A stretch of 64,000 bases of DNA, from positions 1 through 64,000 of IMG/VR virus record IMGVR_UViG_3300037507_005588; one strand, 5' to 3'. Below are positions 6,597 through 61,338 of this stretch, piece by piece. Below the pieces are notes generated by a model. It saw only the letters and a list, made by a program, of their open reading frames with translations, was not told the DNA's origin and did not search any database. The translations under genes and the position numbers were made by a program. The stretch comes from a virus. Each line of letters opens with the position of its first letter. Position 1 is the stretch's first letter.

Positions 6597-6995
6597 TTAT
6601 TCGAAACTCCTGAAATTATTTTCTTTTTTTTCAGGATGTTTTTTTTCAAATTTTTTCACAAGTTGTCCTGATAACGCGTTGGCTTCATCCTCATTTTTTC
6701 CACCAATGTCAGGTCCTTGTTCTCTGTTCAAAATTTGTATTTGATACTCATGGACCCATTCATGAGCCAAAGTCCTAAGAACGTCTCTTAATATTCTATC
6801 TTTGACCAAAATTTTCAATCTACTATCAGGAGTTCTGGAACCCGTGGTCATATCACCATATCTATTACCCAAAAACTCAACAACAACAGATTCTTTTAGG
6901 GGTAGATTTCTTTGAAGTAATTTAATAAACCTTTCTACAGAGTCGTGTACAGTTTTAATTTTGTTGGCATTCAAATATTTGATAGTAACTTTCAT
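6597..6995 (-). CDS. zincin-like metallopeptidase domain protein
   Basis: LAHEWVH (HExxH) and downstream EDEAN. Confidence 0.65.
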   Translation of the reverse strand: MKVTIKYLNANKIKTVHDSVERFIKLLQRNLPLKESVVVEFLGNRYGDMTTGSRTPDSRLKILVKDRILRDVLRTLAHEWVHEYQIQILNREQGPDIGGKNEDEANALSGQLVKKFEKKHPEKKENNFRSFE

Positions 6996-7066
6996 AAAGA
7001 TAAATACTAACCCATACATGTATTTTTATTTTGTTTTTGATATTTATAATTAAATATTTTTATAAA

Positions 7067-13889: not shown

Positions 13890-14073
13890 AACATAAATAA
13901 ATATTATGTCATAAGGAATTGTCCATGAAAAAAACCCCCACCTTGTGAGTGAGGGTTCATTTTATGAAAGTCTGAGTCCAAACCACCACAAATCTAATCT
14001 AATAAAAAAATTTCCATCGTGTAAACCAAAACCAACTCGTATCATTCGGTTTTTTTTATTCAGTGGAATTCTA

Positions 14074-43639: not shown

Positions 43640-44230
43640 ATGAAAGTTTTATTCTTAGATAACGACGGTGTAATTTGTCTTGCCAACACTTGGGGGACTA
43701 GAAACAAAAAACGCCAAAAGGCGGGTCTTTCCACTAAAGTACCTTTTAAGGAACTACCTCTTGATGTTAGGTTCGACAACTTTGACAAGAAATCAGTTCA
43801 AGTATTGAATGAAATTTTGGAAGAAACTGGTGCTGAACTTGTTGTCAGTTCTGATTGGAGATTTTACGCAACACTCGAAGAACTCGGTGATTACTACCAA
43901 TCTCAAGGTATTAATAAAAGACCAATTGACGTCACCGAAAAGTTTTCTGATGCGTTTCCTAAAGAATGGAGTGGTCTAAGATTCAGGGCCGAACTTGAGC
44001 TCGAAAGGTTTATGGAAATTGAACTTTGGTTGGAAAATCATCCCGAAGTTACTCAATGGGTTGCAGTTGATGATTTGGATATGAGTATTGATTATCTTGG
44101 ACCGAGGTTTTCAGATAAGAATGGTTCCGATAAAAAACCAGGTCTTACCAATTTTGTTTTAACTCCAAAGTCAACTGAAGGTATTAAACAATATGGTATT
44201 AAAGATAAAATTTTGAAATATTTATTATAA
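43640..44230 (+). CDS. HAD-superfamily protein (HAD_SAK_2, RNA-repair-associated type)
   Basis: FLDNDGV, VSSDWR, VAVDD. Confidence 0.75.
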   Translation: MKVLFLDNDGVICLANTWGTRNKKRQKAGLSTKVPFKELPLDVRFDNFDKKSVQVLNEILEETGAELVVSSDWRFYATLEELGDYYQSQGINKRPIDVTEKFSDAFPKEWSGLRFRAELELERFMEIELWLENHPEVTQWVAVDDLDMSIDYLGPRFSDKNGSDKKPGLTNFVLTPKSTEGIKQYGIKDKILKYLL

Positions 44231-44835
44231 TGATTATTATAGACAACTTCATCAAAGACTTAGATTTTTTGGAAAGAATTGAAAAATCTGATAAATTTTG
44301 GGAACGTGGATATCAGTGGTACGACGGTTGGTGGAATCTCGAACCGAATAATTTAAGACATCACTTAATCAAAGCTATTTGGGGTCCCAACTCACCTCAT
44401 CCCAATATTTCATGTTTGGGATTCGAACATTGGGTTGGTGATTTTACAGACACATCTGAAAGTTTTGAACAAATGGGTAGAGAATATTCTTTGAAACTCC
44501 ATTTTGACAAAGACGAAGATTATTGGAAAGAACATAAAACAATTCTTGGTCCTAAAATAGGTACGGTATTTTACCCATGTAGGGAAATTAACGAAATGGA
44601 AGGTGGTATGTTATACCATTGGGAGAATTATGATTCATCCAAGTTAACTCCTGAAGGTTGGTTGACAGAACCTGAAGATGAGCCCGAAATCATCAAAGCT
44701 AAATTCAATAGATTGATTATTTTTGATGCGTCAAAACTACACGGGGTTTCCAAAGTAACCAAAGGTAGACGTAGAGCTATTGCAATTAATTTGTGGGACA
44801 AAAAACCACTCGAATTTGTCAATAAAGATTATTAA
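44230..44835 (+). CDS. 2OG-Fe(II) oxygenase
   Basis: HFDKD..GG..FNRL..LHGV..R. Confidence 0.75.
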   Translation: MIIIDNFIKDLDFLERIEKSDKFWERGYQWYDGWWNLEPNNLRHHLIKAIWGPNSPHPNISCLGFEHWVGDFTDTSESFEQMGREYSLKLHFDKDEDYWKEHKTILGPKIGTVFYPCREINEMEGGMLYHWENYDSSKLTPEGWLTEPEDEPEIIKAKFNRLIIFDASKLHGVSKVTKGRRRAIAINLWDKKPLEFVNKDY

Positions 44836-44913
44836 TTAAACTGACATGGTTTGTTCAATTTGTGGTATGGAAATCGATGAAAGAATCTCAGAAGAATATA
44901 TTGCGGGAGATGT

Positions 44914-45957
44914 TCATTTAGCCTGTTCGATTTCCGAAAGTTGATTTTGGAAAATTTGTATTTGTAATCTATAATAAAGAATTTTCTGATTCAAATCCAA
45001 AATTTCTTTGGAGTTTTTGTTCCTAATCAAAGAGTTATCTGTTTGATTCAACATTTCATTTTCTAATTCGGAAATTTTTTTCTGCACCGATAAAATGTTG
45101 TTTTTATACAAAAGAGTTTTTCTATTCAATTTATCTATGTCAAAGAGGTGTCGACGTTCTTCATCAGTCATATCGTTGTGATAGTAATGTGCTTTAACAT
45201 TTGACAATCCATACGGGGGAGTCCCAAAACAAAAAACAAAATTGGAGGGGAGTGTAAAACCTCTTTTCACCAAAGATTCATTAAGTTCGTTGATATATCC
45301 TGTGTTTTTTGGGTGCGGATTCTCAAATTCATACCCGAACATTTTAATATCTAAATCGAATCTATTTGCAACGATTTCTTTTGTTTCATCCGTATAATAT
45401 TGTTTATAATCTCTATCTTTTTCGTTCAAATATGACTCGTTGGTCATAGGTAGAAAACTATCTTTTAACTTCAAATGAGTTGAAATTAAGTCAAAATCCT
45501 CATTGAGTTTTTCAAAAGCACCAATAAAGTTGACAATAAATTTACCACTCTCATCAATTAGATAATACGTTTGAGGTGTGCGGTTACTATAATAACAAGT
45601 TCTTAACCATTCCAAATCTACATGAGGGTCATTGGTAGGTAATCTATCTTGCATCTGTAAAATATTTCCATTGAATTTCCAATTTATGAATTCATCAAAT
45701 GTCATATCGATATTCTTATTCCTGACATAATACCTCCAACAAGAAACTTGGAGGTCCCATGGATTTCTTACAAAAGCAAATTTGAATAAAGATTCAAAAA
45801 AAATTGGTTCCAACCAATCACGGTATTGGACGGATAGAGCGTGAGTTAATTCGTGATACAAAAATTCTGTATACGAATGAAGTGAGTCTTCAATTGAGGA
45901 CCCAGCCGTTTTTGGGATATGAATAAAAAGAAACGGAGGGTCAGTAGATAAAACCAT
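44914..45957 (-). CDS. sulfotransferase family 2 protein
   Basis: FIHIPKTAGSS; FVRNPWD..VS. Confidence 0.85.
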   Translation of the reverse strand: MVLSTDPPFLFIHIPKTAGSSIEDSLHSYTEFLYHELTHALSVQYRDWLEPIFFESLFKFAFVRNPWDLQVSCWRYYVRNKNIDMTFDEFINWKFNGNILQMQDRLPTNDPHVDLEWLRTCYYSNRTPQTYYLIDESGKFIVNFIGAFEKLNEDFDLISTHLKLKDSFLPMTNESYLNEKDRDYKQYYTDETKEIVANRFDLDIKMFGYEFENPHPKNTGYINELNESLVKRGFTLPSNFVFCFGTPPYGLSNVKAHYYHNDMTDEERRHLFDIDKLNRKTLLYKNNILSVQKKISELENEMLNQTDNSLIRNKNSKEILDLNQKILYYRLQIQIFQNQLSEIEQAK

Positions 45958-45978
45958 AAAAAAAATATCGTCAAACTA

Positions 45979-46009
45979 TTTGACATGTAAAATAAATTTT
46001 ATAACTTTG
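45979..46009 (+). promoter_or_regulatory. Bacteroidota housekeeping-sigma promoter (TTTG-N19-TAACTTTG), representative copy
   Basis: further TAnnTTTG elements at 27726, 41592, 43627, 46549, 51178, 53256, 53899, 55208, 57168 and 57696; minus strand at 26979 and 61284. Confidence 0.8.
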
Positions 46010-46027
46010 TGGTATAATTATAAAGAT

Positions 46028-46126
46028 ATGAAAACGCACGTTCAAAATATTGTAGGTTTTATGATTGATGTCATTTGTCAAAAATGGTTTCAGCGTCCTA
46101 TATTTAGTTCGGGTATTTTCATGTAA
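46028..46126 (+). CDS. putative attenuator leader peptide MKTHVQNIVGFMIDVICQKWFQRPIFSSGIFM
   Basis: 32-aa ORF between promoter and terminator; contains the antiterminator strand. Confidence 0.65.
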   Translation: MKTHVQNIVGFMIDVICQKWFQRPIFSSGIFM

Positions 46127-46150
46127 ACTACAAAGTTAACAAAATATTAC

Positions 46151-46180
46151 AACCCGAACTCACAAGGTTCGGGTTTTTTG
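46151..46180 (+). terminator. terminator of putative attenuator
   Basis: AACCCGAACT-CACAA-GGTTCGGGTT-TTTT; 5' arm also pairs with 46106-46114. Confidence 0.8.
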
Positions 46181-46220
46181 TTTTATCTTTGTAAGTTCTT
46201 TGACATATTAGTAGCCATAA

Positions 46221-46293
46221 GGTATTGTAGCTCAGTTGGTAGAGCACCAGACTGAAAATCTGGGTGTCACTGGTTCGATTCCAGTCAGTACCA
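46221..46293 (+). tRNA. tRNA-Phe(GAA)
   Basis: cloverleaf. Confidence 0.92.
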
Positions 46294-46301
46294 CAACAAA
46301 C

Positions 46302-46375
46302 AGGCATTTAGCTCAGATGGTTAGAGCACCTCGCTGATACCGAGGGGGTCGTAGGTTCGAGTCCTACATTGCCTA
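46302..46375 (+). tRNA. tRNA-Ile(GAT)
   Basis: cloverleaf. Confidence 0.92.
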
Positions 46376-46379
46376 CAAA

Positions 46380-46452
46380 GACTTCTTAGCTCAGCTGGTA
46401 GAGCAATACACTTTTAATGTATGGGTCCCGAGTTCGAATCTCGGAGGAGTCA
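46380..46452 (+). tRNA. tRNA-Lys(TTT)
   Basis: cloverleaf. Confidence 0.92.
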
Positions 46453-46456
46453 CAAA

Positions 46457-46531
46457 GCACCCTTAGCTCAGTTGGTTCAGAGCATCTCGTTTACACCGAG
46501 AGGGTCGGGAGTTCGAGTCTCTCAGGGTGCA
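46457..46531 (+). tRNA. tRNA-Val(TAC)
   Basis: cloverleaf. Confidence 0.92.
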
Positions 46532-46560
46532 CTTTCAAATTTTTTTCTTATATTTGTATT

Positions 46561-47151
46561 ATGAAAGAATTAATCTTAGAACGTGTCACAAACACTTTGG
46601 TTGATTTTCAAATTGACGAAGGTTCAGAACAGAGAACCGTTGGAGATTTGATTGAATACCAAATCAAACAAATCATCATGGGACTCAAGGACTCCAACTT
46701 GGTGAGAGAATGTTTGGAACCACGTAGCAAAAAATCAATTGAAGATGTGACTTTGATTGGGGTCGACAATATAACAAATTATATTGACACAAAAACCCAC
46801 GATGTTGATTCTGAATTTTCAATGCCAAATTTAACATCCGTTGAAAAAATCCGAAAGTTACTTTTGGATGATTCCAAATCATTAATCTACGTGTTCGTTT
46901 CTTATAAAAAAGAAAACAATATTGTCACAATTCAAAAAATCCAAGTAAAATATATTTGGGAAATTGACTTCTCAATTCTTAGAATTGGTTCATTGGGAAA
47001 GGGACAACTTCAAATTTCAGATATGAATAAAGAATTGGTCTTCACCGAAGAAGGAAAAGTATCTTGGTTTGAAAAACTCAAATCCAAAGTTCGAGAATAT
47101 CATCAAGATAGAATCAATCAAATCGAAAAAGACAAATTGTCTTGGTTATAA
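46561..47151 (+). CDS. PD-(D/E)xK nuclease, HincII-like restriction endonuclease fold
   Basis: GDLIE..EDV..IDTKT..PNLTS..QLQI resembles the HincII motif order. Confidence 0.5.
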   Translation: MKELILERVTNTLVDFQIDEGSEQRTVGDLIEYQIKQIIMGLKDSNLVRECLEPRSKKSIEDVTLIGVDNITNYIDTKTHDVDSEFSMPNLTSVEKIRKLLLDDSKSLIYVFVSYKKENNIVTIQKIQVKYIWEIDFSILRIGSLGKGQLQISDMNKELVFTEEGKVSWFEKLKSKVREYHQDRINQIEKDKLSWL

Positions 47152-47153
47152 AT

Positions 47154-47228
47154 GGTGGATATAGTTCAGTTGGTTAGAACGTCTGATTGTGGTTCAGAAG
47201 GTCGTGGGTTCGAATCCCATTATTCACC
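47154..47228 (+). tRNA. tRNA-His(GTG) with encoded G-1
   Basis: cloverleaf; G-1:C73. Confidence 0.92.
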
Positions 47229-47233
47229 CAAAT

Positions 47234-47307
47234 GGTCTTGTACCCAAGTGGTTTAAGGGAGCGCTCTGCAAAAGCGTCAGTCGTCAGTTCGAATCTGACC
47301 GAGACCT
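47234..47307 (+). tRNA. tRNA-Cys(GCA)
   Basis: cloverleaf; U73. Confidence 0.92.
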
Positions 47308-47313
47308 CAATTT

Positions 47314-47384
47314 TACCCTCTCGTATAATGGCAGTACAAGCGGTTTTGGTCCGCTGAATTGGGGTTCGAGTCCCTGGGGGGTAA
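47314..47384 (+). tRNA. tRNA-Gln(TTG)
   Basis: cloverleaf; U1-A72. Confidence 0.9.
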
Positions 47385-47389
47385 CAATT

Positions 47390-47460
47390 GCGTCCATAGT
47401 GTAATGGTAACATCACGGTCTCCAAAACCGTTGTTCTAGGTTCGAGTCCTAGTGGGCGTG
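47390..47460 (+). tRNA. tRNA-Trp(CCA)
   Basis: cloverleaf; G73. Confidence 0.9.
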
Positions 47461-47541
47461 CTAAAAGTTATGATGTATAAGAACCCAATTTTGTTGTTGG
47501 AACAGAAAGGATAACAATCCCTTCGGGGACATTATCTCATC

Positions 47542-49644
47542 TTATGTGAATTGTAAACTCCAAGAAAGTATTTCGTGATTGTCATTATTACCTCCTGTTG
47601 CAGCACCGAATCCCATGTAGTAAGAACCAGTGTCAAATGAGAAACTGCTATATGTAATGTTTGGAGAACCTGGTTTACTATTTGTTGTATTGTAATATAA
47701 TGATAGTGTTTGAGCTGAATTATTATAATCCGCCCAGAAATATAATTGTTGTCTCCAAAATCCTGCACTTACACTTGTAGTTGATTGTAAGACATTACTC
47801 TTATACCATTGGAAATTATTAACTGTAAAGGTGTAGAATCCGATGGCATTTATTGTTGATGATGATTCTATTCTACCAACACCGCCACCACTAGTTCCAT
47901 TGGTATTATTTGTTGTTGTCCATTGTACACAATATCCATCGGCACCTGTTCCTCCGCCAATAAAAGATGACCATTGAGCTGAGAAGTTTCTATTGTATTG
48001 AATTGCAGTCGTCCTATACATATTTCCAACTGAGGCACTTGTTGTTGTTGTTAAAGCAATAATAGTACCTCCCGATACTGCAGCGGCTCCAACAAGAGTA
48101 ATACCATCAGTTGATGTAAAGTTAGGGTAACTAAATCCTTGTAAGTTAGTTGTATTTGTCGATGTTGGGGTTGGAGTTTGTGTATTGGTTGGTGTCTGAG
48201 TTGGAGTAGTTGTTGGTGTAAAACTTGGAGTCAAACTACTCGTTGGTGTTTGTGTAGGTGTTTGAGTACTTGTTGGACTTGGTGTTGGAGTGACTCCTGG
48301 ATTTATTACCAAACTTACATATACAGGTACACCTATTGTGAATTGTGTTGTTGCGGATTGTATTAGTACGGCATTTCCGGAGGGTACATTTGTAGGAGGT
48401 GCACCTATACCAGCACCAAAAACAAATCCATTGTTTGATGGCGATTCTTGCCAATATTTGAAAGAGTCAGTATCACCTGAATAAATTGCTGTAATACCTG
48501 CTTGATAGAATGTTATGGTCACACTTTGACCTGTAAACACCGAATAATAATTTGTTCTATTAACACTTTCTGAATCTATACTATTGAGGTAAAATCCTCT
48601 ACCTCCTGTTGCTAAAACATTTATGTCTGTACTTCCTGATGTAATTCCACCAGTACTGTTCATAATAGAATTACCTGAAGAAGGGAAGCTGTATGGAAGT
48701 GCTACCAAATTAAATGAATAACCCGTTAACGCAACTGGTGAGGTCGAAGGTGTGGGAGTATTTGTGGGACTAACCGTTGGAGTGTTTGTATTCGTTTGAG
48801 TCGGAGTTGTTGTTGGTGTTGGTGATGGAGTTCCAATAACACAAACATTATTTACTCCTTCTGCAGGTGTATATAATGCAAAGAATGTATGTAATGGTTG
48901 TGTAACTGGATTTGATGAAGTATAAATTAATACATTATTTTTATAATATGTAACATTCGTTCCATTATATTCTACCTTCCATACATCAGTTGATAAGGTA
49001 GTTATTGAACCTGGAACATTAACTTGGTTACCATTTTCATATATCTCTATGAAATTATTTTGTAAGTATATTCCATATGAAATATTAACATATGTCTCAA
49101 CATTTCCTGTTGGATTATAAGAGAATCCACCCATTAAGATGTTACCATTAGCTGTAGTTTGGAAGGTCAATGTAACAGGAGTTGTATATGTTTCCAAGGA
49201 ATATGCCGATGAATCCCAACCACCAGCAGATGTTTTTATTGCTGAAGTTGTTGTTGTGTTTGCATTAATACTATTAAATGTAAATGAATCACAGAGAGAC
49301 ACACCATATGATGTCCAATAACCATTATTATTTAACCATGTTTTTGCTTCTTCTCCAGTTGCAAATGATTGACCAGCAATAGTTTCTGATAAAGTAATAA
49401 ACGACCCTTCAGTTAAATCGGTTGACCTGAAAAATCCCAAAAATGCGGTTGTGCCGTCGGCACCTGGTTGACCACTTGGAGTTTGGTGGGTGATTACATA
49501 TCCCAAATCTTCATCAGGACCATTCCAAAATTTTGGACTTTGGGTAAATCCAGATGTTGGTGTACCAATTGCTAAATTACCTAACTGTTCTGTTCCATCA
49601 ATTGATGAACCCAAATTATAAGCGAAAGGACGAGTTGTTGCCAT
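47542..49644 (-). CDS. probable virion fibre/adhesin with Pro-Thr linkers and C-terminal L-type (ConA-like) lectin domain
   Basis: PTPT repeats; GADG..Y.GFGAATGG..HEILSW. Confidence 0.7.
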   Translation of the reverse strand: MATTRPFAYNLGSSIDGTEQLGNLAIGTPTSGFTQSPKFWNGPDEDLGYVITHQTPSGQPGADGTTAFLGFFRSTDLTEGSFITLSETIAGQSFATGEEAKTWLNNNGYWTSYGVSLCDSFTFNSINANTTTTSAIKTSAGGWDSSAYSLETYTTPVTLTFQTTANGNILMGGFSYNPTGNVETYVNISYGIYLQNNFIEIYENGNQVNVPGSITTLSTDVWKVEYNGTNVTYYKNNVLIYTSSNPVTQPLHTFFALYTPAEGVNNVCVIGTPSPTPTTTPTQTNTNTPTVSPTNTPTPSTSPVALTGYSFNLVALPYSFPSSGNSIMNSTGGITSGSTDINVLATGGRGFYLNSIDSESVNRTNYYSVFTGQSVTITFYQAGITAIYSGDTDSFKYWQESPSNNGFVFGAGIGAPPTNVPSGNAVLIQSATTQFTIGVPVYVSLVINPGVTPTPSPTSTQTPTQTPTSSLTPSFTPTTTPTQTPTNTQTPTPTSTNTTNLQGFSYPNFTSTDGITLVGAAAVSGGTIIALTTTTSASVGNMYRTTAIQYNRNFSAQWSSFIGGGTGADGYCVQWTTTNNTNGTSGGGVGRIESSSTINAIGFYTFTVNNFQWYKSNVLQSTTSVSAGFWRQQLYFWADYNNSAQTLSLYYNTTNSKPGSPNITYSSFSFDTGSYYMGFGAATGGNNDNHEILSWSLQFT

Positions 49645-49661
49645 GGACAACAATAAATACT

Positions 49662-50264
49662 TTATTCAATAATATTTTTCCAAGAATCCTTTTCATAACC
49701 CCACATTTCAAAGTCTTCGGTTCTTTTTTGATAAACAATGTCCGCCAATTCTTGAGTATAATAAGAATGATATGGTTTTTTGTATTGTTCCAAATAGTTG
49801 GTTTGCCAAGGTTTTTTACCATCTTGAATCATATCCAACAATTCTGACAATTCAGTTTGATTGTCTTTTATAAATGGTATTCGTAAAAGGTCTTGATATA
49901 AATTTTCATGTCTTACAAGATAATCAGGTTTGGTGTTGTACCTTTTGAGGGTCCCCAATTCATGCCAATTATTATCATAATTCAAATCCAAGAATTCGTT
50001 ATGGTTTCTAACGAAATCTGAAAAAGAAACCTTCTTATCTTTTGGAATGTCATCGGTACCGTTTCTTAAAATCCACCATGAGACAGTTCTTGAATAAGGA
50101 TTTCTAATGTTTAATATTATCGACCAACTTGGGTCAATAACTTCCATTCCATGACTTATTCCATAGTCAACGAAACCCAAATTGGTGGCAATCATAGATG
50201 TTGCTCTACTTGCCGTTCTTGGAGGACCCCACCAATGACATTTATATTTTTCAGAAATATACAT
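49662..50264 (-). CDS. sulfotransferase-like protein
   Basis: PPRTASR; RNPYSRTVS; paralogue of 51730-52329. Confidence 0.7.
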   Translation of the reverse strand: MYISEKYKCHWWGPPRTASRATSMIATNLGFVDYGISHGMEVIDPSWSIILNIRNPYSRTVSWWILRNGTDDIPKDKKVSFSDFVRNHNEFLDLNYDNNWHELGTLKRYNTKPDYLVRHENLYQDLLRIPFIKDNQTELSELLDMIQDGKKPWQTNYLEQYKKPYHSYYTQELADIVYQKRTEDFEMWGYEKDSWKNIIE

Positions 50265-51088: not shown

Positions 51089-51242
51089 ATTTTGTATATT
51101 GTTGATATTATAACGGAATAAAAAAGATTGTCCATAAAAATTAACCGTAGTTAGTTTGGAAATTAGAATACTTATTGTATCTTTGTAGGGTTGAAACGGG
51201 GATAACACCCCGAAGGTCTTTGAAATGTTGGTGAAAAAAGTT

Positions 51243-51323
51243 GCCGAGGTGGTGGAATGGTAGACACGCTGGTCTTAGGAACCAGTGCTGTGAGGCGTGT
51301 GGGTTCGAGTCCCACCCTCGGTA
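51243..51323 (+). tRNA. tRNA-Leu(TAG)
   Basis: cloverleaf with long variable arm. Confidence 0.92.
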
Positions 51324-51329
51324 CAACTT

Positions 51330-51427
51330 GGTGTAGTAGCTCAGGAGGAATGCCCATATGACATTCCCATGGTAGAGCAGAGTCCTGAAAAAACTTGTGC
51401 CACGTGGTTCGAACCCCGTCTACACCA
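51330..51427 (+). tRNA. aberrant tRNA-Phe(GAA)-like RNA with hairpin inserted in the D-loop
   Basis: perfect acceptor GGTGTAG/CTACACC; D-stem GCTC/GAGC encloses GGAATG..CATTCC. Confidence 0.6.
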
Positions 51428-51433
51428 CAACCT

Positions 51434-51516
51434 TGGAAGGTGGGTGAGTGGTTAAAACCGGCAGACTGTAAATCTGCTCCCTTACGGGTACGGCGGTTCG
51501 AATCCGTCCCTTCCAA
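51434..51516 (+). tRNA. tRNA-Tyr(GTA)
   Basis: cloverleaf with long variable arm. Confidence 0.92.
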
Positions 51517-51575
51517 CAGCCTATTAGGGGGTTGTTCTCGATTGTAGGTGGGATTCCTACCCCGACTATCGTGTG

Positions 51576-54867: not shown

Positions 54868-55094
54868 CAAAGTTCTGTCGCTCCACGGAGAGGAAACTCA
54901 GGACATCTCAGCTTAAGGTGGGAGATATAAGGATTACAACTTATAATGGTCAGTTATAAGTCCACATCATTATATCATAATTACCACCGAGGATGCAACC
55001 CAAAATAGTCCATGACGGTGAGCTGGTCGGACAAGGTGGGGGCCAAAAGATTAATGACAGATTAAATACAGAATCCTGGTTATACTTTGTTGAT
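54863..55094 (+). ncRNA. rnpB: RNase P RNA, minimal type-A-like
   Basis: GAGGAAACTCAGGA and ACAGAATCCTGGTTAT form P4 with bulged U; P1, P2, P3, P5, P6, P7 and P15-17 can all be paired. Confidence 0.88.
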
Positions 55095-55099
55095 TAAAC

Positions 55100-55528: not shown

Positions 55529-55602
55529 AGTTGAGTAGCTCAGTGGTAGAGCAATCCCATTTATGGGATGTGACGCGATAGGTTCGATTCCTGCCTCAAC
55601 TA
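55529..55602 (+). tRNA. tRNA-like RNA without a canonical anticodon loop
   Basis: perfect acceptor and D arm; ATCCC-ATTTAT-GGGAT 6-nt loop; bulged T-stem. Confidence 0.6.
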
Positions 55603-55617
55603 CAAACCTATTTCATA

Positions 55618-60821: not shown

Positions 60822-60855
60822 AAAAAACCCCTCCCGAAAGAGGGGTTCTTTTTTT
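60822..60855. terminator. bidirectional terminator ending the tmRNA and the upstream + strand operon
   Basis: AAAAAACCCCTC-CCGAAA-GAGGGGTT-CTTTTT. Confidence 0.75.
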
Positions 60856-61265
60856 GGTGGAGGTGGCGGGAATCGAACCCGCGTCTTGCTCAGTCTACCC
60901 ATAAAGGACTACATGCTTAGGTCAGGGTTTTTCACACCCTCCGAACTATTTGGTTTCTATTTTACCATCGTCACCAACAACTGTGGGGTGTTCACTCAAA
61001 TCGGTAGAACACCAAACGTTACCTCCATTCCTTTTTGGGTAGAAACCACACCGTAGGGACTTCTGTTTCCAGGTTATATGTCCATCGACCCATTGTCACT
61101 ATAGCCTTAGGCTACAGTAACTTCCTCAGCTTGGATAAGACCCAAAGCCTCGAGAGTTGCGAAAGTTTCGCCGTTTGATTGTTGCATCCATAGATTAAGG
61201 TGATAGGAAACATCTCACCGCATGCCCCGTATGACTAACTCTGCCAATCAATACCGGTCACCCCC
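60855..61265 (-). ncRNA. ssrA: tmRNA
   Basis: GGGGGTG/CACCTCC-ACCA acceptor with G3:U70; T-arm GCGGG-TTCGATT-CCCGC; tag ORF 61172-61107. Confidence 0.93.
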
Positions 61266-61338
61266 ATAATTCAAAGAACAATACAAATATAAATACTTTT
61301 TTTCGAATCACAAAGTATTTATATGTAAAATATTTCAA

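Follow-up and report, generated by a model that had tools for sequence, protein, structure and literature searches.

Why phages carry transfer RNA (tRNA) genes, and how these genes are controlled, is an open question, and it is posed in a concrete form by a stretch of 64,000 nucleotides (nt) from the viral record IMGVR_UViG_3300037507_005588 (positions 1 to 64,000; hereafter the window). Here, a promoter, a leader open reading frame (ORF) of 32 codons and an intrinsic terminator stand ahead of an array of eight tRNA genes. An earlier note, made from the letters of this DNA without database searches, had read the arrangement as a ribosome-stalling attenuator that appears to sense the tRNAs it controls. 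We consider it likely that the cassette is indeed a ribosome-mediated (leader-peptide) transcription attenuator gating the phage tRNA operon. This reading, derived from sequence comparison, is supported by comparative results: the codons of the leaders follow the tRNA sets behind them, and the three strands of the switch change together across divergent loci.

Architecture of the leader cassette

All parts of the cassette lie on the plus strand. The promoter (45979-46009) consists of a -33 element TTTG (45979-45982), a 19-nt spacer and the -7 element TAACTTTG (46002-46009), and it is kept in relatives (alignment A1). The underlying pattern TTTG-N18-20-TAnnTTTG, which we take to be the Bacteroidota sigma-A consensus, occurs 17 times in the window compared with 2.3 ± 1.5 times in shuffled sequences, mostly ahead of genes and tRNAs. 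Transcription of the leader would start near 46012-46016. The leader ORF (46028-46126, with ATG at 46028 and TAA at 46124-46126) encodes MKTHVQNIVGFMIDVICQKWFQRPIFSSGIFM, a peptide for which no Pfam family was matched; the ORF has no Shine-Dalgarno sequence, and the 5' untranslated region (UTR) is rich in A/T. The terminator follows at 46151-46183, with the 5' arm AACCCGAACT (segment 3, 46151-46160), the loop CACAA (46161-46165), the 3' arm GGTTCGGGTT (segment 4, 46166-46175) and the T-run TTTTGTTT, which amounts to a stem of 10 base pairs and a loop of 5 nt. The promoter, the ORF, the terminator and the eight tRNAs had all been placed correctly in the earlier note, as judged by the sequence, ARAGORN and Rfam.

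The antiterminator strand AGTTCGGGT (segment 2, 46106-46114) spells the codons Ser-Ser-Gly within the ORF and is an exact complement of 46152-46160, so that the perfect alternative partner of nine base pairs claimed before holds at 9/9 positions. The strand ends 9 nt (three codons) from the stop codon, or 8 nt by the best-duplex measure described below. The 8-mer GTTCGGGT was counted six times in the window (1.07 expected), and three of the six copies lie inside the cassette. A further pairing is predicted for the start-codon region (segment 1, 46026-46040): in the free leader, the fold of minimum energy (-22.7 kcal/mol) joins this region to the 3' end of the ORF (46110-46124). The terminator hairpin and the antiterminator are nearly equal in energy (-14.3 versus -15.0 kcal/mol), and the whole leader is more stable than 200 of 200 shuffled sequences (z = -3.35).

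Upstream of the antiterminator strand, the sensor run GTC ATT TGT CAA AAA TGG TTT CAG (V-I-C-Q-K-W-F-Q, 46070-46093) is made only of amino acids for which the array has a tRNA and, as the earlier note had observed, it ends 12 nt ahead of that strand. Under strict wobble rules, GTC is not read by tRNA-Val(UAC), and the seven remaining codons are readable by the array. Behind the terminator, a -7-box-like TATCTTTG without a -33 partner (46184-46191) is a possible bypass promoter, and a boxA-like element GTTCTTTGACATATTAGTA (46195-46213, in the following the box) lies 7 nt ahead of tRNA-Phe.

Another terminator of the window, on the minus strand at 13929-13957 (AACCCTCACT-CACAA-GGTGGGGGTTTTTTT), resembles the leader terminator in loop and flanks (86% over 29 nt). 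The CACAA/CAAAA loop was seen again in many cassette terminators of other phages.

Related cassettes in other viral contigs

A first search for relatives with the exact 25-mer of the terminator retrieved seven viral contigs, all with the same order of promoter, ORF, terminator, box and tRNA-Phe; their ORF of 31 codons (e.g., MKLVNKQIVKHVIQFCQNWYLRVFSSSGVIS) is followed by AGTTCGGGTG, the terminator, the conserved box TTCTTTGACATATTGGTA and tRNA-Phe. A second search used only the box and hence did not depend on the stems; it was followed by one with the T-run and the box combined. In total, at least about 30 distinct cassette loci were found in many viral contigs, with a promoter, an ORF of 19-37 codons, a terminator, the box and a tRNA array, and the terminator and the box were present in all of them. 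In alignment A1, none of the nine antiterminator bases varies, not even at third codon positions, whereas adjacent codons do.

Relatives can carry two cassettes per genome (L017 at 6834-7010; a second box in L223), of which the window has only the first. In these genomes, cassette 1 stands before an array beginning Phe-Ile-Gln, and cassette 2, with a leader of the type ..GTPATEADT..EMG or ..GGTEADT..EM, stands before Glu/Met/Gly/Asp/Pro/Thr.

Two other search patterns were discarded. The 5' UTR pattern TTTGTGGTATAATTATAAA returned 30 loci, of which only L011/L012 and L016 were real and the others were chance extended -10 promoters. A WY.R-gap-box pattern proved too loose in a metagenome scan, with 3 true loci (L223, L243, L275) in 118 rows.

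Leader codons follow the tRNA set of the array

For the comparison of leaders with arrays, the leader was blindly taken to be the longest ORF that begins with ATG, has 15-55 codons and stops shortly ahead of the terminator, and an array was defined as same-strand tRNAs with gaps of up to 1 kb. Among 24 family representatives, 367 of 698 leader residues match an amino acid of their own array, compared with 278.7 ± 13.6 when the arrays were permuted among the loci (0 of 20,000 permutations). The result was the same for 14 superfamily representatives, where 249 of 395 residues match compared with 188.9 ± 11.3 after permutation (0 of 50,000; Fisher P 2.6e-11). The covariation of leader codons with the tRNA set in relatives, which had been proposed earlier as a check of the attenuator, thus holds strongly.

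The match is specific in three further respects. It amounts to 52.6% in the frame of the ORF and to 30-36% in the five other frames. Along the leader, it rises to 65-66% at 6-15 codons before the antiterminator, where 40% is expected, and it lies at expectation within and after the antiterminator. Finally, split codon boxes follow the anticodons of the array, with ratios of 42:4 for Ile, 14:3 for Leu, 12:3 for Ser and 11:5 for Arg; leaders ahead of arrays with tRNA-Ile(UAU) use ATA as the only Ile codon (6/6), and those ahead of tRNA-Ile(GAU) use ATT/ATC (36:4).

Individual loci illustrate how different the matched sets are. A leader with ..LLWDDAEEVCDVG.. (..WDDAEEVCDV..) precedes Asp, Asp, Glu, Glu and Val, the leader MKTIFNISPSILRPSIRRS precedes Ser, Arg, Pro, Ile, Met and Leu, MKTIFIFGTPATEADTSKVEMG (..GTPATEADT..EMG) stands ahead of Glu, Met, Gly, Gly, Asp, Pro and Thr, and ..NIDVVEWAANDNKGRRGG.. 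ahead of Lys, Gly, Trp, Ala, Asp, Asn and Val. Within the clade of the window, L003 combines tRNA-Ser(UGA) with TCG/TCA codons, and L016 combines tRNA-Asp with a GAT codon. In the sister group of the window, leader residues 2-24 all belong to the 12 amino acids of the sister-group array.

With regard to the window itself, all eight array amino acids occur in the leader, and the 20 matching residues counted in the earlier note were recovered as 20 of 31 non-initiator residues, compared with a share of 33% in the long ORFs of the phage (binomial P 3e-4). Of 121 ORFs of 28-36 amino acids (aa) in the genome, a single one, presumably the leader, combines such a fraction with the presence of all eight array amino acids. 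The array lacks tRNA-Tyr and tRNA-Leu, which are both found at 51243-51517 with their own promoter, and the leader lacks Tyr and Leu codons; Phe and Gln occupy the positions of the relatives' Tyr and Leu.

Covariation of the three strands

The stems of the cassette terminators are unrelated in sequence (CCCGAAC, CCTGATTC, CCCATCT, CCCGGC, CCCGAC, GGGAAyC, CCCTGGAC and CCCTAAG), and in most loci a copy of the 3' arm is found within the end of the ORF, changing along with the stem. L018 is an example, with GAATCAGGT present once within the ORF and once more as the 3' arm of the terminator. A MAFFT alignment of the region from antiterminator to terminator (A2, 19 loci) left several antiterminator strands out of register, and duplex energies were used instead. 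For each locus, the 67 nt upstream were paired with the true 5' arm, and arms swapped between loci served as the control.

The duplex of antiterminator and 5' arm had a mean energy of -12.4 kcal/mol for true pairs versus -8.5 ± 3.0 kcal/mol for swapped pairs. The true arm ranked first or near first at most loci, where it has to be considered that many of the swapped arms share a CCCGA core. By the best duplex, 26 of 30 loci have an antiterminator strand that ends approximately 0-19 nt upstream of the stop codon, with a distance of 20-54 nt to the 5' arm. The closeness to the stop codon corresponds to a geometry in which a ribosome at the stop codon would mask the antiterminator. For the duplex of segments 1 and 2, the difference was modest (-9.4 kcal/mol for true versus -6.8 kcal/mol for swapped pairs), and the pairing of the start region with the ORF end is suggestive only. 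Overall, the predicted geometry of trp/his-type attenuation, recognized in the earlier note for the window, is conserved and covaries in all three strands across many divergent loci.

The boxA-like element and read-through

The 18-mer TTCTTTGACRTRTTRGTA was found just ahead of the 23S ribosomal RNA (rRNA) gene in many Bacteroidota genomes; one Flavobacteriales genome has it between the spacer tRNA and the 5' end of 23S. The boxA-spacer sequence of the Escherichia coli rrn operons is ugcucuuuaacaauuua (PMC2724277), and by an alignment made by eye and not computed, the box shares 12 of 16 positions with it. The box also heads other phage tRNA arrays (L015, L019), and a degenerate copy heads the Leu/Tyr unit of the window. 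We read the box as a putative boxA-like antitermination signal of an untranslated operon. A role as promoter was rejected, as there is no TAnnTTTG at the right distance from the TTTG of the box and as the box is found inside host rrn spacers. Pairing of the box with the sequence 3' of tRNA-Trp reached -17.2 kcal/mol at best (near 47430-47510), and equally good pairing was obtained with unrelated coding DNA at approximately 48730.

The arrangement of terminator and box provides the main argument for regulation. In L003 and L006, the T-run of the terminator passes directly into the box. A separate promoter would have no space there, and the box and the tRNAs can thus be reached only by read-through. 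Since read-through is needed at these loci, the terminator is expected to be a regulatory site and not the mere end of a small gene. The earlier note had cautioned that the element at 46184 could allow independent transcription. This caveat stands for the window and for L011, the only locus to share an element at this position (TAACTTTG), and it does not extend to most relatives: the element is absent in L003, L004, L006, L008, L016, L018 and L021, and some loci have no room for a promoter.

Proposed mechanism

Host RNA polymerase would start at the TTTG/TAACTTTG promoter, and a ribosome would translate the 32-codon leader. If decoding is fast, the ribosome would arrive at the stop codon and cover AGTTCGGGT, the hairpin at 46151-46175 would form, and transcription would end ahead of the tRNAs. 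Slow decoding of codons for Phe, Ile, Lys, Val, His, Cys, Gln or Trp would make the ribosome stall at least 12 nt upstream of AGTTCGGGT, which could then pair with the 5' arm of the terminator and let the polymerase read through. After read-through, the boxA-like element would probably recruit host antitermination factors of the rRNA type, with binding of Nus factors, and the eight tRNAs would be made. These tRNAs would speed up decoding again and relieve the stall. As the product would relieve the stall, the cassette would gauge, by negative feedback, how well precisely these tRNAs are supplied. Without translation, the start region paired with the ORF end would give termination by default.

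The physiological trigger would be a depletion of tRNAs, be it by host shut-off, by codon demand or by anticodon nucleases; the link to host anticodon nucleases is speculation. Phages with such cassettes probably make these tRNAs only when their ribosomes are short of them. With somewhat less confidence than for the attenuator as such, we favor the wider view that codon-matched leader attenuators are widespread in phages and form a hitherto undescribed class of autogenous gauges of tRNA supply, with the tRNA operons made processive by a boxA borrowed from host rRNA operons.

Weighing of the evidence and of alternative explanations

Several observations weigh against a sensor of its own tRNAs. 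The match in the window is partial (20/31), as the leader also has codons for Thr, Asn, Gly, Met, Asp, Arg and Pro, for which the array provides no tRNA. Owing to kinship of the loci within families, their counts are not fully independent, a point that the test on 14 superfamily representatives addresses, and arrays of 15 or more amino acids give the leader-array comparison no power. By the duplex measure, the antiterminator is weak at L021, L223b, L323, L346 and L338. In the window phage, TATCTTTG at 46184 and TATATTTG at 46549 could drive transcription of all or half of the array independently of the attenuator, and part of the expression may thus bypass the switch. Contigs from RNA libraries speak neither for nor against the switch, as they span only the tRNA-like parts: the metatranscriptome contigs cover tRNA-like stretches at 90-99% likeness and leave the leader of the window phage uncovered, and the one contig of a relative that crosses the terminator could be DNA.

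Part of this evidence would suit a translation-coupled attenuator that reports general translation capacity, i.e., any slowdown or host shut-off, with the codon match as a by-product. Such a device would account for the 11 window leader residues without an array tRNA, leaders ahead of large arrays are uninformative on this point, and the N-terminal MK(T/N)(I/L)xNI is common to families whatever their array. However, a by-product would not match by frame, position and codon box, and the match tracks arrays as unlike as Asp/Glu/Val, Ser/Arg/Pro/Ile(ATA)/Leu and Phe/Ile/Gln/Lys. We regard a gauge of general capacity as unlikely. Less probable still is that the leader ORF is just a small phage gene that has a terminator of its own, that the tRNAs are transcribed from TATCTTTG (46184) and TATATTTG (46549), and that the arm copy forms no switch. 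TATCTTTG does equal the -7 box of promoters in the window, e.g., those ahead of tRNA-Arg (41617) and of the Leu/Tyr unit (51179), and L011 has TAACTTTG at the place equivalent to 46184. However, most relatives lack such a -7-like element, the terminator is directly adjacent to the box in L003 and L006, and the antiterminator strand changes in step with stems of unrelated sequence. Moreover, no Pfam family was found for the peptide of the window, and the leader peptides follow the arrays although their sequences show no conservation from family to family.

There is very little to recommend a leader RNA that senses tRNA directly and without translation, like a T-box riboswitch. The regulated genes are tRNAs, and a UGGU motif (TGG TAT/TTT) kept in the clade of the window could in principle pair with an ACCA 3' end, but L018 has UGGA in its place, and the leader is only approximately 100 nt long and has no Stem I. 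Moreover, searches with Rfam gave no T-box or other leader family (E ≤ 1 on 44000-49000; gathering score on the whole window), and the signal is tied to a single reading frame, whose start and stop codons are conserved. The tRNA-sensing leader-peptide attenuator is favored by what can be read directly from the loci, namely the parts and their conservation, the covariation, and a leader-array match that is specific for frame, position and codon box.

Comparison with known systems

To our knowledge, leader-peptide attenuation is known for amino-acid and synthetase genes and not for tRNA genes themselves. Among the multivalent attenuators of enterobacteria, the ilvGMEDA leader senses Ile/Val/Leu and the thr leader senses Thr/Ile. 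The phage cassettes resemble both in the order of a promoter, a short ORF rich in the sensed codons, a terminator and a mutually exclusive antiterminator with its upstream strand at the ORF end, in a stop codon placed to let the terminating ribosome mask this strand, and in the proposed sensing of several amino acids by one leader of approximately 30 codons. In contrast to these attenuators, the phage cassette would control tRNA genes and not biosynthetic enzymes, so that its product acts directly on the sensor. Moreover, the phage leaders sample as many as 8-12 codon families, each of them one to a few times, instead of using runs of one or two, and they are found in phages of Bacteroidota, without Shine-Dalgarno sequence and with a boxA-like element after the terminator.

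The pheST attenuator of E. coli, with its pheM leader, is an example of leader-peptide control by the supply of charged tRNA-Phe. It likewise regulates a component of the translation apparatus by leader-peptide attenuation, whereas its target is a synthetase, its signal a single amino acid and its setting cellular. T-box riboswitches also use a terminator/antiterminator read-through switch keyed to tRNA status, but they bind uncharged tRNA directly and without a ribosome, and the phage leader has no T-box features. The rrn boxA (PMC2724277) is similar in sequence to the box and also heads an untranslated stable-RNA operon, whereas the phage box stands behind a terminator that appears to be regulated.

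In the cyanobacterium Anabaena sp. PCC 7120, translational stress induces the trn operon, a long tRNA array (PMC8421152). Its repressor is TrcR, and the TrcR paper (PMC10272220) mentions neither attenuation nor a leader peptide. As proposed for the phage cassettes, an accessory tRNA array is kept low and turned on when translation is impaired, but the control of trn is exerted by a protein repressor. Searches of the full-text literature found no published leader peptide or attenuator ahead of tRNA genes or phage tRNA arrays, and the Anabaena array is the nearest published case.

If the proposed mechanism is true, the phage tops up exactly those tRNAs that turn limiting during infection, whether by codon demand, by host RNA decay or by anticodon-nuclease defence. 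An attenuator would explain how large tRNA arrays stay quiet until needed, and it would tie tRNA supply to a possible counter-defence against tRNA-cleaving host systems. A sensor written in codons would also be a direct and testable readout of the decoding steps that limit a phage, and leader sequences could help to predict both where operons begin and end and which functional identity an odd phage tRNA has. The cassette would also provide a compact programmable part, with a codon as input and transcription as output, for the phylum Bacteroidota, in which genetic tools are few.

The tRNA array and other tRNA units of the window

The array spans 46221-47461 on the plus strand. It begins with tRNA-Phe(GAA) at 46221-46294, tRNA-Ile(GAU) at 46302-46376, tRNA-Lys(UUU) at 46380-46453 and tRNA-Val(UAC) at 46457-46532 (ARAGORN; Rfam 67-75 bits), and continues with tRNA-His(GUG) at 47155-47229, tRNA-Cys(GCA) at 47234-47308, tRNA-Gln(UUG) at 47314-47385 and tRNA-Trp(CCA) at 47390-47461 (ARAGORN and Rfam). 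The unit ends after tRNA-Trp, and the next genes are on the minus strand. Inserted between the two halves are TATATTTG (46549-46556) and a 196-aa ORF (46561-47151, plus strand) that weakly matches the SwaI-like endonuclease family PF22081 with an E value of 9.7e-5, which is below the curated cut-off. As relatives have tandem tRNAs and no ORF at this place, the 196-aa ORF probably arrived as a mobile insertion, together with a -7 box of its own at 46549.

Within the 64-kb window, ARAGORN reported 25 tRNA genes, and Rfam added one tRNA-like match. The other tRNA groups of the window have no leader cassette; they have plain promoters or a promoter-hairpin-box arrangement instead. The second tRNA unit, made up of Leu and Tyr with an odd tRNA-like gene of 98 nt between them, is headed at 51155-51232 by a promoter TTTG..TATCTTTG, a small hairpin GGGG-ataaca-CCCC and the degenerate box GTCTTTGAAATGTTGGTG. 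It has neither a leader ORF nor a terminator, and its layout is like that of an rrn operon with promoter, boxB-like and boxA elements. The 98-nt gene between tRNA-Leu and tRNA-Tyr (51330-51427) was matched as a tRNA by Rfam (41.8 bits) and not reported by ARAGORN, and may be oversized or interrupted.

Source and genomic surroundings

The window is part of an 89.8-kb viral record, which is approximately 30% complete by estimate, and has a G+C content of 34%. Its sequence was found again in 14 lake-water DNA runs, and the phage is a lake phage of Bacteroidota. Related viral contigs reach 233-295 kb, which makes the window phage a jumbo phage. A blastn search of cultured phages with the region gave matches to tRNA genes only and no close relative. 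With the neighbouring sulfotransferase, tblastn gave only distant matches, and one related-locus search of viral contigs found none. Two sulfotransferase-like genes (PF03567) lie on the minus strand on either side of the tRNA unit (44914-45957 and 49662-50264), the larger of which has only distant phage relatives (phiRSL1, DLP_6).

Further RNA-related features were noticed in the window. Approximately 1.2-2.4 kb upstream of the attenuator, at 43640-44835, a 'Swiss Army Knife' RNA-repair HAD-domain protein (PF18143, E 1e-21) is encoded together with a 2OG-Fe(II) oxygenase, which hints at an investment of the phage in RNA or tRNA repair. The phage also has its own transfer-messenger RNA on the minus strand (60855-61265; Rfam RF00023, 83 bits), with a same-strand promoter TTTG..TATATTTG at 61284-61314. 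A non-coding, G+C-richer segment of approximately 230 nt (54868-55099) immediately precedes tRNA-Arg(ACG); it has neither an Rfam match nor a leader cassette and is possibly a structured RNA of an unknown kind. At 55529-55603, ARAGORN reports a tRNA-His with the anticodon ATG, which is unusual for His (Rfam 42.5 bits).

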